IMG/VR virus record: IMGVR_UViG_2671180676_000002
Strand: one strand, 5' to 3'
Source of the DNA: a virus
Taxonomy: Duplodnaviria > Heunggongvirae > Uroviricota > Caudoviricetes
Length of the DNA stretch: 19,922 nucleotides
Shown: piece by piece, positions 3,561 through 9,851 of the stretch
How positions within the stretch are numbered: position 1 is the stretch's first letter
Layout: every line of letters starts with the position of its first letter
Translations under genes and position numbers: made by a program
The notes under the pieces: generated by a model
Told to the model about the DNA's origin: nothing
The model's input: only the letters and a program-made list of their open reading frames with translations
Database searches by the model: none

Positions 3561-3832
3561 GTATTCGTATCGAAATTGGCGAACGTTATGTTGTTACCAG
3601 TGACAGCTTTCAGTTTATTCTCCACGAGAAAAAGAGAGCGGAAAGCGGTAAAAACGCCGGTCAGGAATGGCTGGCGGTGGTTGGTTATTACCCGAAATTA
3701 AGCCAGCTCGTTTCCGGCCTGATGCATCACGATATTCTGACCGGAAGCGCAAAATCTTTTGCCGATTTAAACGCGCAGGTTGAGCAACTCAGCAGGCGTT
3801 GTTCAGAGGCTTTTGGCTCATATGGACGTTAA
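3557..3832 (+). CDS. Hypothetical early protein (orf83 position)
   Basis: 91-aa ORF overlapping the upstream gene by 4 nt and running into the start of A. Confidence 0.7.
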   Translation: MSIRIEIGERYVVTSDSFQFILHEKKRAESGKNAGQEWLAVVGYYPKLSQLVSGLMHHDILTGSAKSFADLNAQVEQLSRRCSEAFGSYGR

Positions 3833-6101
3833 AGCCTCCGGGCGTTTTGTCCCTCCGTCAGCATTTGCCGCAGGCACCGGTAAGGCGTTTACCGGTGCTT
3901 ATGCATGGAACGCGCCACGCGAGGCTGTCGGGCGCGAAAGACCTCTTACACGTGACGAGATGCGTCAGGTGCAAGGTGTTTTATCCACGATTAATCGCCT
4001 GCCTTATTTTTTGCGCTCGCTGTTTACTTCACGCTATGACTACATCCGGCGCAATAAAAGCCCGGTGCACGGGTTTTATTTCCTCACATCCACTTTTCAG
4101 CGTCGTTTATGGCCGCGCATTGAGCGCGTGAATCAGCGCCATGAAATGAACACCGACGCGTCGTTGCTGTTTCTGGCAGAGCGCGACCAGTATGCGCGCC
4201 TGCCGGGGATGAATGACAAGGAGCTGAAAAAGTTTGCCGCCCGTATCTCATCACAGCTTTTCATGATGTATGAGGAACTCTGCGATGCCTGGGTGGATGC
4301 GCATGGCGAGAAAGAATCGCTGTTTACGGATGAGGCGCAGGCTCACCTCTATGGTCATGTTGCTGGCGCTGCACGTGCTTTCAATATTTCCCCGCTTTAC
4401 TGGAAAAAATACCGTAAAGGACAGATGACCACGAGGCAGGCATATTCTGCAATTGCCCGTCTGTTTAACGATGAGTGGTGGACTCATCAGCTTAAAGGCC
4501 AGCGTATGCGCTGGCATGAGGCGTTACTGATTGCTGTCGGGGAGGTAAATAAAGACCGTTCACCTTATGCCAGTAAACATGCCATTCGTGATGTGCGTGC
4601 GCGCCGCCAGGCAAATCTGGAATTTCTTAAATCGTGTGACCTTGAAAACAGGGAAACCGGCGAACGCATCGACCTTATCAGTAAGGTGATGGGCAGTATT
4701 TCTAATCCTGAAATTCGCCGGATGGAGCTGATGAACACCATTGCCGGTATTGAGCGTTACGCCGCCGCAGAGGGTGATGTGGGGATGTTTATCACGCTGA
4801 CCGCGCCGTCAAAGTATCACCCGACTCGTCAGGTCAGAAAAGGCGAAAGTAAAACCGTTCAGCTTAATCACGGCTGGAACGATGAGGCATTTAATCCAAA
4901 GGATGCGCAGCGTTATCTCTGCCGCATCTGGAGCCTGATGCGCACGGCATTCAAGGATAATGATTTACAGGTCTACGGTTTGCGTGTCGTCGAGCCACAC
5001 CACGACGGAACGCCGCACTGGCATATGATGCTTTTTTGTAATCCACGCCAGCGTAACCAGATTATCGAAATCATGCGTCGCTATGCGCTCAAAGAGGATG
5101 GTGACGAAAGAGGAGCCGCGCGAAACCGTTTTCAGGCAAAACACCTTAACCGGGGCGGTGCTGCGGGATATATCGCAAAATACATCTCAAAAAATATCGA
5201 CGGCTATGCACTGGATGGTCAGCTCGATAACGATACCGGCAGGCCGCTGAAAGACACTGCAGCGGCTGTTACCGCATGGGCGTCAACGTGGCGCATCCCG
5301 CAATTTAAAACGGTTGGTCTGCCGACAATGGGGGCTTACCGTGAACTACGCAAATTGCCTCGCGGCGTCAGCATTGCTGATGAGTTTGACGAGCGCGTCG
5401 AGGCTGCACGCGCCGCTGCAGACAGTGGTGATTTTGCGTTGTATATCAGCGCGCAGGGCGGGGCAAATGTCCCGCGCGATTGTCAGACTGTCAGGGTCGC
5501 CCGTAGCCCGTCGGATGACGTTAACGAGTACGAGGAAGAAGTCGAGAGAGTGGTCGGCATTTACGCGCCGCATCTCGGCGCGCGTCATATTCATATCACC
5601 AGAACGACGGACTGGCGCATTGTGCCGAAAGTGCCGGTCGTTGAGCCTTTGACTTTAAAAAGCGGCATCGCCGCGCCTCGGAGTCCTGTCAATAACTGTG
5701 GAAAGCTCACCGGCGGTAATACTTCGTTACCGGCTCCCACGCCTTCTGAACACGCCGCAGCCGTGCTTAATCTGGCTGATGACGGTGTTATCGAATGGAA
5801 TGACCCGGATGTCGTGAGGGCGCTCAGGGGCGCATTAAAACACGGGCTGAGAACGCCAAATCGTCAACAAAGAAACGGAAGCCCGTTAAAACCGCATGAA
5901 ATTGCACCATCGGCCAGACTGAGCCGGTCTGAACGATTGCAAATCACCCGTATCCGCGTTGACCTTGCTCAGAACGGTATCAGGCCGCAGCGATGGGAGC
6001 TTGAGGCGCTGGCGCGTGGCGCGACCGTAAATTATGACGGGAAAAAATTCACGTATCCGGTCGCTGATGAGTGGCCGGGATTCTGGCATCAATTTGAGTA
6101 A
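3822..6101 (+). CDS. A: Replication initiation protein A (rolling-circle HUH endonuclease)
   Basis: Long ORF ending TAA at 6099-6101; HUH motif PHWHMMLF (H-W-H at 5016-5024) and paired tyrosines YIAKYISK (Y codons at 5169-5171 and 5181-5183). Start is ambiguous: the ORF track opens at TTG 3780, I prefer ATG 3822. Confidence 0.9.
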   Translation: MDVKASGRFVPPSAFAAGTGKAFTGAYAWNAPREAVGRERPLTRDEMRQVQGVLSTINRLPYFLRSLFTSRYDYIRRNKSPVHGFYFLTSTFQRRLWPRIERVNQRHEMNTDASLLFLAERDQYARLPGMNDKELKKFAARISSQLFMMYEELCDAWVDAHGEKESLFTDEAQAHLYGHVAGAARAFNISPLYWKKYRKGQMTTRQAYSAIARLFNDEWWTHQLKGQRMRWHEALLIAVGEVNKDRSPYASKHAIRDVRARRQANLEFLKSCDLENRETGERIDLISKVMGSISNPEIRRMELMNTIAGIERYAAAEGDVGMFITLTAPSKYHPTRQVRKGESKTVQLNHGWNDEAFNPKDAQRYLCRIWSLMRTAFKDNDLQVYGLRVVEPHHDGTPHWHMMLFCNPRQRNQIIEIMRRYALKEDGDERGAARNRFQAKHLNRGGAAGYIAKYISKNIDGYALDGQLDNDTGRPLKDTAAAVTAWASTWRIPQFKTVGLPTMGAYRELRKLPRGVSIADEFDERVEAARAAADSGDFALYISAQGGANVPRDCQTVRVARSPSDDVNEYEEEVERVVGIYAPHLGARHIHITRTTDWRIVPKVPVVEPLTLKSGIAAPRSPVNNCGKLTGGNTSLPAPTPSEHAAAVLNLADDGVIEWNDPDVVRALRGALKHGLRTPNRQQRNGSPLKPHEIAPSARLSRSERLQITRIRVDLAQNGIRPQRWELEALARGATVNYDGKKFTYPVADEWPGFWHQFE

Positions 6102-6191
6102 TGATCTCATCTATACAGTATTAAGCAGTTTTGACTGTAATTGATTGTTTTTTATATGGTTGCATGCATTAAATCTACGTCAATATCATTA

Positions 6192-6200
6192 TGTTATAAT
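6192..6200 (+). promoter_or_regulatory. Candidate extended -10 promoter for the plus-strand accessory genes
   Basis: TGtTATAAT (TG at 6192-6193, consensus TATAAT at 6195-6200) in an AT-rich leader, about 30 nt upstream of the ATG at 6229. Confidence 0.4.
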
Positions 6201-6228
6201 GCATTACTTAAAAATGTTGGAGACAAAA

Positions 6229-6420
6229 ATGTTAAAGCCTGCAGATGTTGTTTGTTTGAAAAGCGGTGGATTTAAAATGACTGTATCTGACTCTACTGAG
6301 ACTCATGCTAAATGTATTTGGCATGATAAAGAAGGAGTTTTGCACGAGGAGTCATTCTCCATTGATTTACTGGAAATAGCAGAGAGTAAAAGTGGTATGC
6401 TGTGTCGTCCACGTAAGTGA
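6229..6420 (+). CDS. Small DUF2158/YodC-like protein (about 63 aa)
   Basis: ATG at 6229 with GGAGA RBS (6219-6223); VVCLKSGGFKMTV...CIWHDKEG..HEESF..LLEI resembles the YodC/DUF2158 small-protein pattern from memory. The 91-aa track version starts at a TTG without RBS. Confidence 0.6.
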   Translation: MLKPADVVCLKSGGFKMTVSDSTETHAKCIWHDKEGVLHEESFSIDLLEIAESKSGMLCRPRK

Positions 6421-6447
6421 ATCACAATAAAATTCACGGGGGAAAGT

Positions 6448-7128
6448 ATGAAACAATACAGCGAATTAGAAAACAATGTTAAGAGATTCATTGTTGAGCA
6501 TGAAAAAGGGATTTCTATTGATGATATTCATCATAAGTTCCGGATGAAGGATGGTCAGAATCGCAAGATGGCAGATTATCTTATTGATAATAAAAAGATA
6601 ATTTTGGAGATGAAAAGTCTTTTTTCTGACAGGGTCAAGAATGTCAATGATAAATTGAATGAGTTGGTTAAAACTGATAGTTGGCTTGCAAAAAACTGGC
6701 ATGGTGCTATTCATTTAGAAGAGTTGATAAAAAGACACCCAGACTCAAAGCGATTTAGAAATGATATAATGAACTTTGCTTATGAAAATATTAAAACAAA
6801 GGTAGTTAAAGAAGCTAATAAGCAAATAAATGCAACAAAGGATGTTTTGGGTTTAAATGACTCGATTGGCGGATTGATTTTGTTAAATGATAATGTCTTT
6901 TCACATGAGTTTAATTATTTGTCAGATGAAATATTATATTTGCTAGGCACAAAGAGATATTCGAGTGTTGAGTTTGTGGTTTATATTGCAAAATTGATTG
7001 ATAAACAGGTTGATGTTTGTGTGCTACTTGACAGTCAATCTAAAAATAAAAATTATATTGAATGGTATATGAATAATGTTTTTTTGTTGAACTGGGCGTC
7101 TTTTAATAAATATGCAATAAAGATGTAG
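6448..7128 (+). CDS. Hypothetical protein, 226 aa, AT-rich accessory gene (candidate phage-exclusion/defence protein)
   Basis: Clean ORF with purine-rich RBS (GGGGGAAAG) 27 nt after the upstream stop; Lys/Asn/Ile-rich composition; possible D43..E54-x-K56 nuclease-like motif (ADYLIDNKKIILEMK). Function not established. Confidence 0.75.
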   Translation: MKQYSELENNVKRFIVEHEKGISIDDIHHKFRMKDGQNRKMADYLIDNKKIILEMKSLFSDRVKNVNDKLNELVKTDSWLAKNWHGAIHLEELIKRHPDSKRFRNDIMNFAYENIKTKVVKEANKQINATKDVLGLNDSIGGLILLNDNVFSHEFNYLSDEILYLLGTKRYSSVEFVVYIAKLIDKQVDVCVLLDSQSKNKNYIEWYMNNVFLLNWASFNKYAIKM

Positions 7129-7379
7129 TGGTGTGGATGGATATGAAATGAGTCAACCAAGATGCACCTTGGTCAGTAATCTCATGTGAGATACCACATA
7201 TAACACCAAAAGTGTCAGGTTGATGGCCATTGTTCACCGTTTACAGCAGATTATGGTCAACGAAAATCTGACGCCCGATGAGCTAGTCGGGTGTGCCGAA
7301 ATAGTCAGGGATAATTACGAACAGCTTAACTATATCGGTCAGTCCAGCCTTGCGCCGCCACCACGCAGACGATAGAGAA

Positions 7380-7418
7380 CCCCGCCAGCAATGAAACATG
7401 TTTTCAGTGCTGGCGGGG
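7380..7418. terminator. Hairpin between convergent accessory genes (likely terminator, mainly for the minus-strand gene)
   Basis: Perfect 11-bp stem CCCCGCCAGCA / TGCTGGCGGGG with a 17-nt loop; lies 31 nt downstream of the minus-strand gene stop. Confidence 0.45.
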
Positions 7419-7448
7419 TTGAACAACGAACGAAGTGAGGCGTTAGCA

Positions 7449-8390
7449 TTAAGTTAATTTTAATGAATGGTACTCTCGTGAGTTGACCGAAGATTTGAGA
7501 TAACCGCAATCATTAACCGACAGTATTGCCGCTAATAGGCGACAAACGAGTTTCTGCATTTGCAGTAATATATCGTTACCATATTGATTGTTGTTAACAC
7601 TGGAAAAACCAAGTGGTTGGCCAAAAAAAATAGCCTCATGAAAATTATCATTGCGGATGCCAGAAATGTTTTTTTTGCCTGATACCCATGTGGGGATTGA
7701 TAACCCATAAATTCTGCACATCCACTTTAATCGCTTGGAATGATTTGGCTGGGTTTTATCAGGAGCCTTGTCATGCTCAGCCCACGATAAAGCAAAGCAA
7801 CCATCAAGTGCCATGTAAAGGTACTGGAATTTTTCAAAAGGAAGGTATTGTGGGTTTTGAGATAAGAATAGCGCATGCACCACTGCCGCAATTCTTTTGG
7901 GGGAGTGCGCATCCTTTTGTTTGTTAGTTATATAATTAAGAGCCAGTTCTATGACTTCTTTTTCAGAGCATCCAACGAGAATAAAATCGGTTAACTTAGT
8001 GGGCTTGATAGTGGTTGCATCAAGAAAACCAGCGTCAGTGGTTGTCAATCTTATACCCTTGAAAAAAGAGAGGCACCACACAACAAAGTTGAGAGTTTCT
8101 AACGAGGATGTGTTTTTTAATTTTAGTGTGTGCGTTTTGGGCATGCCGAATACTCGGTAACTATAAGGCATTGTGCATGAGTCACCATTAAGGTTATATA
8201 CCTTTCGATTCCCAGGGTATATCCAACCATTAACAACGTTTTTATCATTGTTAATACGTTCCACTTTCTCAATAAGACCGGGTAAAGTACGCAAAGAAAA
8301 TTGTTCAGTCTCAATGTTAACTTCTACTGGATAGTATCCAAACTCCGAAATAATCTCATTTGGTTGCTGTTCGTCAACTTCGCCTTGCAT
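7449..8390 (-). CDS. Hypothetical protein, 313 aa, with HEPN-type R-N-x3-H motif (candidate abortive-infection RNase)
   Basis: ORF with GGAGA RBS 5 nt upstream of ATG at 8390; AT-rich; residues R246-N-D-N-F-H251 (plus-strand 7638-7655) fit the HEPN Rx4-6H motif with N after R. Fold not verified. Confidence 0.8.
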   Translation of the reverse strand: MQGEVDEQQPNEIISEFGYYPVEVNIETEQFSLRTLPGLIEKVERINNDKNVVNGWIYPGNRKVYNLNGDSCTMPYSYRVFGMPKTHTLKLKNTSSLETLNFVVWCLSFFKGIRLTTTDAGFLDATTIKPTKLTDFILVGCSEKEVIELALNYITNKQKDAHSPKRIAAVVHALFLSQNPQYLPFEKFQYLYMALDGCFALSWAEHDKAPDKTQPNHSKRLKWMCRIYGLSIPTWVSGKKNISGIRNDNFHEAIFFGQPLGFSSVNNNQYGNDILLQMQKLVCRLLAAILSVNDCGYLKSSVNSREYHSLKLT

Positions 8391-8628
8391 AACTTTCTCC
8401 GTTCAAAAACAGGCACGATAATTCTCGTAAGCCTATCATGTTCGCAAAGTATCCATACCTGTGGATTTTGTAAATTTAAGTTGGTTTGTCATTAAATAAG
8501 CCGTTGCATGCAACAAGTGAATGTTTTTGCATGCGTCGGGGATGTCCGTTCAGGCTGCGTGCGGTCAGGACTGGTGCGGATCCATAGTATCTATGCAACT
8601 GCATTAAAACCGCCCCATGAAGCGGGCG

Positions 8629-8647
8629 GGCGAGGCGGGGAAAGCAC
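8629..8647. other. P2-type cohesive end site (cos), 19-nt GGCGAGGCGGGGAAAGCAC
   Basis: Exact match to the P2 19-nt cohesive end as I recall it, in the GC-rich spacer upstream of the Q/P packaging operon. Confidence 0.8.
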
Positions 8648-8788
8648 TGCGCGCTGGCGGTGGTGCTGATTTTATTTTTTCAGCGTCTGAGCGCGTCGTG
8701 AAGGCGTTTACTTGGCCTGCTGGGGCGTTGGTGTGTCTGCGGGATTTTTTGTGCGGTGATGAGCGTGTGAGGGCGTGATGACGGGGTG

Positions 8789-8811
8789 TAAAAAAGCCGC
8801 CCGCAGGCGGC
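8789..8811 (-). terminator. Rho-independent terminator after Q
   Basis: GCCGCC-CGCA-GGCGGC hairpin (8796-8811) immediately past the Q stop, followed on the minus strand by a run of six T (plus-strand A tract 8790-8795). Confidence 0.6.
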
Positions 8812-8816
8812 GATGT

Positions 8817-9851
8817 TCAGCCGTTGTCAGTGTCCAGTGAGTAGTTTTTAAAGCGGATGACCTCCTGACCGAGCCAGCCGTTTATTTCCCGAATCCTGTC
8901 CTGTAACGGGATAAGCTCATTGCGGACAAAGACCTTTGCCACTTTCTCAATATCACCCAGCGACCCGACGTTCTCCGGCTTGCCGCCCATCAACTGAAAG
9001 GGGATGCGGTGCGCGTCCAGCAGGTCAGCGGCGCTGGCTTTTTTGATATTAAAAAAATCGTCCTTCGTCGCCACTTCACTGAGCGGGATAATTTTAATGC
9101 CGTCGGCTTTCCCCTGTGGTGCATAGAGAAACAGATTTTTAAAGTTGTTGCGGCCTTTCGACTTCACCATGTTTTCGCGGAGCATTTCGATATCGTTGCG
9201 ATCCTGCACGGCATCAGTGACGTACATGATGTATCCGGCATGTGCGCCGTTTTCGTAATACTTGCGGCGGAACAGCGTGGCCGACTCATTCAGCCAGGCA
9301 GAGTTAAGGGCGCTGAGATATTCCGGCAGGCCGTACAGCTCCTGATTAATATCCGGCTCCAGCAGGTGAAACACGGAGCCGGGCGCGAAGGCTGTCGGCT
9401 CGTTGAAGGACGGCACCCACCAGTAAATATCCTCTTCCACACCACGGCGGGTATATTTTGCCGGTGAGGTTTCCAGTCTGATGACCTTACCGGTGGTGCT
9501 GTAACGCTTTTCCAGAAATGCATTACCAAATACCAGAAAATCCAGCACAAAGCGGCTGAAATCCTGCTGGGAAAGCCATGGATGCGGGATAAATGTCGAG
9601 GCCAGAATATTACGTTTGACGTAAATCGGTGAGCTGTGATGCACGGCAGCACGCAGGCTTTTTGCCAGACCGGTAAAGCTGACCGGCGGCTCATACCATC
9701 TGCCGTTACTGATGCATTCGACGTAATCCAGAATGTCACGGCGGTCGAGCACCGGCACCGGCTCACCAAAGGTGAATGCCTCCATTTTCGGGGCGCTGGC
9801 AGTCATTTTTTTTGCCGCAGGTTGCGGTGTTTTCCCTTTTTTCTTGCTCAT
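8817..9851 (-). CDS. Q: Portal (capsid vertex) protein Q, 344 aa
   Basis: 344-aa ORF adjacent to cos, start overlaps P stop (ATGA); size and position as P2 Q. Confidence 0.95.
   Translation of the reverse strand: MSKKKGKTPQPAAKKMTASAPKMEAFTFGEPVPVLDRRDILDYVECISNGRWYEPPVSFTGLAKSLRAAVHHSSPIYVKRNILASTFIPHPWLSQQDFSRFVLDFLVFGNAFLEKRYSTTGKVIRLETSPAKYTRRGVEEDIYWWVPSFNEPTAFAPGSVFHLLEPDINQELYGLPEYLSALNSAWLNESATLFRRKYYENGAHAGYIMYVTDAVQDRNDIEMLRENMVKSKGRNNFKNLFLYAPQGKADGIKIIPLSEVATKDDFFNIKKASAADLLDAHRIPFQLMGGKPENVGSLGDIEKVAKVFVRNELIPLQDRIREINGWLGQEVIRFKNYSLDTDNG

Follow-up and report, generated by a model that had tools for sequence, protein, structure and literature searches.

A predicted stand-alone PD-(D/E)xK nuclease as candidate defence cargo between gpA and gpQ of a P2-like prophage

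Old, a 586-aa ATPase-TOPRIM nuclease with an architecture unlike that of the 226-aa protein described here (ORF226), and Tin, whose exclusion of T-even phages acts through the single-strand DNA-binding protein gp32, are both encoded by low-GC accessory genes of P2-type prophages. Like ORF226, they occupy the slot between gpA and gpQ. The anti-phage activity of both, with Tin excluding T-even phages and Old excluding lambda, has been re-confirmed (PMC9122126). This slot is a hotspot of variable, often anti-phage, cargo, for which there is experimental support (Rousset et al. 2022, PMC9122126). Partition systems and toxins are also found among the cargo, so that not all of it is defensive (PMC9122126). 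Location in a defence hotspot or island is a generic trait of anti-phage genes, and ORF226 shares it (P2 gpA-gpQ, PMC9122126). By eye, the sequence of P2 Tin (Table S2A, PMC9122126) has a D...E-x-K-like pattern, 'GRIDIAILD...ICAIEVKG'; Pfam finds no family in this protein.

The gene pair that we describe is already on record. System 63 (Table S5B, PMC9122126) is composed of a 226-aa protein and a DUF2158 protein, with 67 occurrences among 18,150 loci, and its sequence is nearly identical to that of our pair; it is absent from the tables of cloned and tested systems of the same work (PMC9122126). Furthermore, the 2.4-kb hotspot has 99.5% nucleotide identity to GenBank AM157369 ("Bacteriophage P2-EC67 proviral ORF226 and ORF313"); of 5426 complete E. 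coli genomes, 27 carry this stretch. Both sources hold the same gene pair as here, and neither gives a function or a domain for the 226-aa protein. We found no report of a published test of the DUF2158/ORF226 pair against phages, and a literature search for "P2-EC67" returned no match. Our main reading, to which we give a probability of roughly 60%, is that ORF226 is a metal-dependent PD-(D/E)xK nuclease, as predicted from its family and model, and that it is defence cargo of a P2-like prophage.

The window, i.e. the whole stretch of 19,922 nucleotides that was analysed, is a P2-like prophage according to its gene calls, with the integrase followed by the repressor, cox, the early genes and gpA. 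The GC content falls from about 52% to 30-39% at positions 6102-8816, between gpA and the portal gene gpQ, and ORF226 is found there:
250-1263, - strand: integrase, a P2-like prophage gene
3780-6101, + strand: gpA, replication endonuclease, 5' flank of the low-GC stretch
6229-6420, + strand: DUF2158 (YodC-like) gene, 63 aa, with GGAG 7 nt before its ATG
6448-7128, + strand: ORF226, from the ATG at 6448 to the TAG at 7128, 226 aa
7449-8390, - strand: ORF313, 313 aa, phrog_5937, convergent with ORF226
8817-9851, - strand: gpQ, portal, the other flank of the low-GC stretch, with the terminase gpP beyond

The DUF2158 gene and ORF226 form a two-gene low-GC cassette. ORF226 is a real gene under strong purifying selection, with a dN/dS of 0.08 against both the Citrobacter (76% amino acid identity) and the Pantoea (63%) homologues. 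An earlier reading of this DNA from sequence only had described a well-formed gene with a ribosome-binding site and a 27-nt spacing; the open reading frame, the G-rich site GGGGGAAAG just upstream (6438-6446) and the gap of 27 nt from the stop of the 63-aa gene to the ATG were all confirmed. The extreme Lys/Asn/Ile content that it pointed out is equally clear, with 27 K, 23 N and 19 I adding up to 30.5% of the residues, and a GC content of 30.0% compared to 51.9% for the window.

Around the cassette, the following elements were found:
6131-6200, + strand: promoter-like region 5' of the two-gene cassette, from pattern matches alone
6131-6160, + strand: TTGACT-18-TATGGT, from a consensus promoter scan
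6192-6200, + strand: extended -10 TGTTATAAT, read directly from the sequence
7220-7375, strand not given: 51-aa ORF with a TTG start, RefSeq name 'meiotically up-regulated 80 protein'
7378-7420, no strand: G+C-rich hairpin of 13+5 bp, between the convergent ORF226 and ORF313

Promoter-like sites number 13 in the region, compared to 8.7 +/- 3.4 in shuffles, and this count gives no evidence of function. The hairpin folds as RNA at -30.9 kcal/mol (z = -7.0), with none of 200 shuffles as stable, and is probably a terminator; a consensus terminator scan did not list it. It is part of a stretch (7188-7447) that is 82-88% conserved in P2, Wphi, P22H4 and other P2-like phages, and because of this conservation we consider the stretch to be phage backbone and not cargo. 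The RefSeq name of the TTG ORF looks like a spurious transfer, and the ORF has no similarity to P2 orf91. Rfam gave no match anywhere in the window.

As for ORF313, it has no match in Pfam, PADLOC or NCBIfam. Yersinia phage vB_YpM_46 and Escherichia phage vB_EcoM-613R3 have ORF313 but neither ORF226 nor DUF2158, and a Citrobacter prophage has a different gene downstream of its ORF226 homologue. ORF313 is a separate hotspot cassette, and a second candidate in the same slot. The three-hypothetical-protein system Rst_3HP (pFR109) was also considered and rejected, with no BLASTP match below E = 0.44 for DUF2158, ORF226 or ORF313 and no match in PADLOC; Rst_3HP of Rousset 2022 is a different locus from system 63. 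Similarity to DUF4238 and to orf91 was sought as well, and none was found to either.

ORF226 alone has no match in Pfam, PADLOC or NCBIfam, and in PHROGs it belongs to phrog_20483, of unknown function. The sequence-only reading had suggested Tin or a Tin-like protein, which would make ORF226 a T-even exclusion protein and, on a premise that the D...E-x-K-like pattern in Tin itself makes uncertain, not a nuclease. The shared slot and a similar length (226 aa, compared to 253 aa for the Tin sequence used) are all that speaks for this. A BLASTP comparison with P2 Tin (from Table S2A, PMC9122126) gave best E-values of 1.2 and 7.8 over 25 residues, which is no homology, and Tin is absent among the profile matches listed (of the 349 described below). 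We give this identity next to no probability, and the predicted nuclease remains our preferred reading.

Nor is the protein an orphan, as it had been called, since besides being ORF226 of P2-EC67 it has both close and distant relatives. A word-indexed search found 26 close relatives with at least 63% identity, in E. coli, Salmonella, Citrobacter and Pantoea. A profile built from these and run against 1.84 billion cluster representatives matched 349 clusters (50% identity level) at E <= 1e-3, of which 74 at E <= 1e-10. All of the relatives are named "hypothetical protein" in their sources. A search with the alignment of close relatives found no relative among GTDB species representatives and only near-identical P2-like contigs in IMG/VR; in the distant alignments no stretch was conserved enough to serve as a query. 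A tblastn search of ORF226 against the plasmid collection gave no match. Members of the family occur in prophages, on plasmids, in integron-like arrays and in defence islands. When NCBIfam and PADLOC were run on all 145 relatives retained for alignment, the matches were noise or belonged to fused SEC-C and Mrr parts. Judging from these sequence comparisons, a large family exists that has no Pfam, NCBIfam or PADLOC model.

The ORF226 unit covers about 226-231 residues, and four architectures are seen among the relatives:
Form 1, 220-265 aa: the unit alone
Form 2, 330-346 aa: the unit, lengthened at its C-terminus by about 105-120 aa
Form 3, 445-450 aa: the unit with an extension of about 210 aa
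Form 4, 560-740 aa: an N-terminal region of about 345 aa with a Mrr_cat-like domain, followed by the unit and sometimes by a SEC-C motif

The fourth form is represented by P0043, P0046, P0047, P0055, P0062, P0114 and P0130, with Pfam matches to Mrr_cat at E of about 1e-5 in four of these fusions and SEC-C at the end of some. According to our alignment, the N-terminal Mrr_cat-like domain has no conserved ExK, while the ORF226-like domain keeps its D/ExK. This suggests that the ORF226-like domain is probably the catalytic part of the fusions.

The idea of a nuclease came from the segment ADYLIDNKKIILEMK, which is present in ORF226 and had been read as a weak D...E-x-K motif. Considering only this protein, the motif is not beyond chance, with 95% of shuffles of ORF226, which is rich in lysine and acidic residues, containing at least one D-x(5-25)-[DE]-x-K. 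The motif gains weight solely from its invariance across distant relatives. We aligned 145 relatives with 17-47% identity to ORF226. In this alignment Q126 (145/145), E54 and K56 (144/144 each) and D43 (143/143) are invariant. Another six positions are at least 90% conserved, namely A123 (139 of 145 relatives), T130 (138 of 145), D25 (139 relatives), N147 (138), A42 (135) and G141 (133). The family signature can be written as AD43...E54-x-K56...Q126-x-x-x-T130...N147, with "A42-D43" standing where classical enzymes have "P-D". The codons of two conserved blocks are located as follows:
6574-6615, + strand: putative catalytic motif A42-D43...E54-M55-K56, with D43 at 6574-6576, E54 at 6607-6609 and K56 at 6613-6615
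6814-6837, + strand: second block A123-x-x-Q126-I-x-x-T130, on the long helix 113-134

Conservation also bears on the choice of residues in the proposed motif. E54-M-K56 stands, with both charged residues invariant. Where the choice had been left between D43 and D47, it falls on D43, and D47 varies already among the close relatives. The acidic residues of VEHEK, once thought to contribute, are not conserved, and the conserved acidic residue of the N-terminal part is D25.

The same alignment bears on a reading in which ORF226 has a restriction fold but no catalysis, and acts as a DNA-binding regulator, an accessory of excision or recombination, or a sensor. Some XisH-like or RPB5-like restriction-fold domains do act without catalysis. 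Such domains usually lose the triad of acidic residues and lysine, which the alignment of 145 relatives shows to be invariant in this family; in the fusions, the degenerate ExK belongs to the Mrr_cat-like domain instead. A non-catalytic role is accordingly improbable next to that of an active nuclease.

The predicted structure agrees with a PD-(D/E)xK protein. AlphaFold2 reached a pLDDT of 80 with a shallow alignment, and a pLDDT of 95.3 and pTM of 0.90 with a deep one. The model has the following elements (residues of ORF226):
6-17 and 24-31: helices
44-46: strand, with D43 immediately before it
51-58: strand, with E54 and K56 inside
63-111: helical insert
113-134: long helix, carrying A123, Q126 and T130
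140-147: strand, bounded by G141 and N147
155-166: helix
176-182 and 188-194: strands
201-219: helix

The elements follow the core order alpha-beta-beta-beta-alpha-beta, as judged by element order and not by coordinates. A nuclease core of this order is what the sequence-only reading would have had to lose in order to fall, and the model is compatible with it. The model puts the putative catalytic D where the second core strand begins and the (D/E)-x-K in the third, and these residues are conserved in the alignment of 145 relatives. D43, E54, K56 and Q126 would cluster in space in this model, and the block of A123, Q126 and T130 may face the active site.

Profile searches point in the same direction. 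PF18742 (REase_DpnII-MboI) is the sole Pfam family that recurs on the ORF226-like domain, in 8 of 145 members with a best E of 1.3e-4, all of these matches being below the Pfam gathering score. The majority consensus of the family matches it at E = 0.067, with 13.2 bits against a 27-bit cut-off, and aligns precisely on the D...ExK segment. The Mrr_cat and SEC-C matches, by comparison, fall on fused parts of the relatives. Profile searches of PDB sequences gave no match with either the close or the deep alignment, and Foldseek against PDB gave none at E <= 0.001. The best-ranked structural matches, none of them significant, are type IIS and nicking enzymes. The list includes BsmI (9.2 with the first model and 8.0 with the second), CdiA-CT Bp1026b (7.6), a XisH-like protein (7.2), N.BspD6I (7.0), NucC (6.9 and 6.4), CdiA-CT EC869 (6.7), Hna (6.1), AF1548 (6.0), Can2 (5.9), and NucS, PspGI, NgoMIV and LlaBIII (5.7). 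Fold and profile searches, as far as model and alignments go, suggest a PD-(D/E)xK enzyme and are supportive of it rather than decisive. With the invariant D43/E54/K56, their strand positions in the model and the recurrence of DpnII-MboI matches, the originally weak PD-(D/E)xK call holds.

A nuclease related to restriction enzymes could also be an orphan type II restriction endonuclease whose methyltransferase is elsewhere in the genome, which the weak sequence link to DpnII/MboI-type enzymes and the type IIS and nicking enzymes among the best structural matches would fit. According to the gene annotations, no methyltransferase is present in the cassette or in the early region of the prophage, and none is an immediate neighbour in the contexts of ten relatives, two of which have a restriction-modification system a few genes away. 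Membership in a type II restriction-modification system, for which a linked cognate methyltransferase was sought in all these places, was rejected. A mobile cassette with an unlinked methyltransferase would, in addition, kill new hosts. We regard an orphan type II enzyme as very unlikely.

The genomic neighbourhoods of the relatives are rich in defence genes: most of the contexts examined contain known defence-type neighbours, and there is no fixed partner gene. One relative lies directly 3' of a CI repressor and has DUF4238 and a BamHI restriction-modification system close by. Another is beside a NACHT protein, and a third is beside OLD-like TOPRIM and PIN-TPR-GreABC proteins. A 230-aa relative (L011, Vibrio sp. 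ED002 chromosome CP080238.1, 222824-235516) is found in a run of short genes on the same strand, with GIY-YIG, glyoxalase, APH, DUF4145, Mrr_cat and SLATT_5, that resembles a chromosomal integron cassette array. The Pantoea ananatis homologue (L003-L007, approximately 6001-6723), with 240 aa and 63% identity, is carried on conjugative plasmids of IncFII-RepA type, flanked by a PLD-family nuclease gene on one side and by a variable region with a Macro-domain gene on the other, and has no DUF2158 beside it.

In one locus (L012 3163-5696, also L013), the stop codon of a gene for a 497-aa diadenylate cyclase (DAC with DACND/DACNH domains) overlaps the start of a 346-aa relative, which has about 115 additional residues at its C-terminus. 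The arrangement suggests an operon for cyclic-dinucleotide signalling in which the relative is a restriction-fold effector. The cyclase link is not general, since a relative of 340 aa stands beside DUF559 and a type I restriction-modification system, with no cyclase neighbour.

These contexts help to weigh the idea that the nuclease works for its own phage or plasmid, through recombination, degradation of host DNA or counter-defence, instead of defending the host. The family is found on phages and plasmids, and the hotspot cargo, as mentioned, is not all defensive. On the contrary, many relatives belong to defence islands of chromosomes, where restriction-modification, NACHT, OLD-like and PIN-TPR genes are their neighbours, and the relative that directly follows a CI repressor has a position typical of lysogen-expressed genes. 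The cassette is also dispensable, with other cargo filling the slot in most P2-like phages. A self-serving nuclease seems to us a rather remote explanation compared to defence cargo.

Next, the companion gene. The DUF2158 protein matches Pfam PF09926 at E = 4.7e-8, above the gathering score, and belongs to phrog_3261; its gene has a dN/dS of 0.20. Its annotated start differs between GenBank AM157369 (158-379), which gives 73 aa, and RefSeq, which gives 63 aa. Among complete E. coli genomes, 27 have DUF2158 or ORF226, and in all 27 the two genes adjoin; the pair is also adjacent in IMG/VR P2-like contigs and in the Citrobacter P2-like prophage (76% identity). A search of the phage collection with DUF2158 found two P2-like records and no others.

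Such a pair could be a toxin-antitoxin or abortive-infection system, in which DUF2158 restrains an ORF226 nuclease toxin, and infection or loss of the prophage frees the toxin, killing the cell or stabilising the prophage. However, neither DUF2158 nor any other conserved small partner is found beside the Pantoea plasmid homologue (63% identical), the Serratia prophage homologue (41%) or any of the remote homologues examined, so that the nuclease seems tolerable alone. The literature on "DUF2158" consists of passing mentions, with abstracts on other subjects than antitoxins, and gives no known antitoxin role. We consider this pair model unlikely, if somewhat less so than the other alternatives. 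Since non-P2 homologues stand without it, DUF2158 is better described as a lineage-specific companion than as an obligate partner of the predicted nuclease.

Under our main reading, the nuclease would defend the lysogen by cutting the nucleic acid of superinfecting phages or of other mobile elements. Its self-protection would not be that of a classical restriction-modification pair, because there is no methyltransferase here or beside the relatives. More probably, the enzyme either prefers some feature of foreign DNA, be it a modified base (as type IV enzymes do) or an unusual structure, or is held inactive until infection. The family appears to serve both settings, in the Mrr-like fusions and in the cyclase-linked relative, and either could extend to ORF226 itself. 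We infer the substrate and the trigger of ORF226, like its nuclease activity and defence role; the substrate could be DNA or tRNA, because the structural neighbours include enzymes for both. DUF2158, rather than an obligate antitoxin, would be an accessory of this lineage, whether as a regulator or as unrelated co-cargo.

A broader proposal is quite possible, and we offer it tentatively. ORF226 may found a new family of stand-alone anti-phage nucleases, of about 350 clusters, that spare the host without methylation, through modified or unusual phage DNA or through an infection-triggered switch. DUF2158 would then be a P2-specific regulator, and the longer relatives would be effectors in other settings, including the diadenylate-cyclase operon.

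The gene and its location were known beforehand. The present analysis adds a predicted domain, identifies the invariant residues and shows how large the unmodelled family is. A gene pair that has been "hypothetical" since 2006 thereby gains a domain assignment and four residues that can be mutated (D43, E54, K56 and Q126). With about 350 clusters in the family, the outcome of a single phage challenge in E. coli would annotate many genes.

Compared to the restriction enzymes that it most resembles, DpnII/MboI (PF18742), BsmI and N.BspD6I, ORF226 differs in having neither a methyltransferase partner nor a separate DNA-recognition domain. It also has a helical insert of about 70 residues (63-134) from the ExK strand to the next core strand, and the invariant Q126xxxT130 is specific to its family. 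Restriction-fold effectors activated by cyclic nucleotides (NucC/Cap4/Can2) are different again, in that ORF226 is not next to a cyclase gene and does not have the C-terminal extension (about 110 aa) of that class; no sequence similarity was detected between ORF226 and these three. The PD-(D/E)xK toxins of CdiA-CT type (the EC869 DNase, and the Bp1026b and E479 tRNases) are C-terminal domains of secreted contact-dependent inhibition toxins with dedicated immunity proteins, whereas ORF226 stands alone in the cytoplasm and lacks a conserved partner.

Finally, membership in Shedu (SduA, DUF4263) was rejected, with no PF14082/DUF4263 or SduA match in Pfam or PADLOC for ORF226 or its 145 relatives. 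The likeness to Shedu, a one-gene defence whose stand-alone PD-(D/E)xK nuclease comes without a methyltransferase and is encoded in defence islands, is one of concept. Set beside these systems, ORF226 would represent one more nuclease family in a superfamily, and a defence theme, that are both well known, rather than a new principle.
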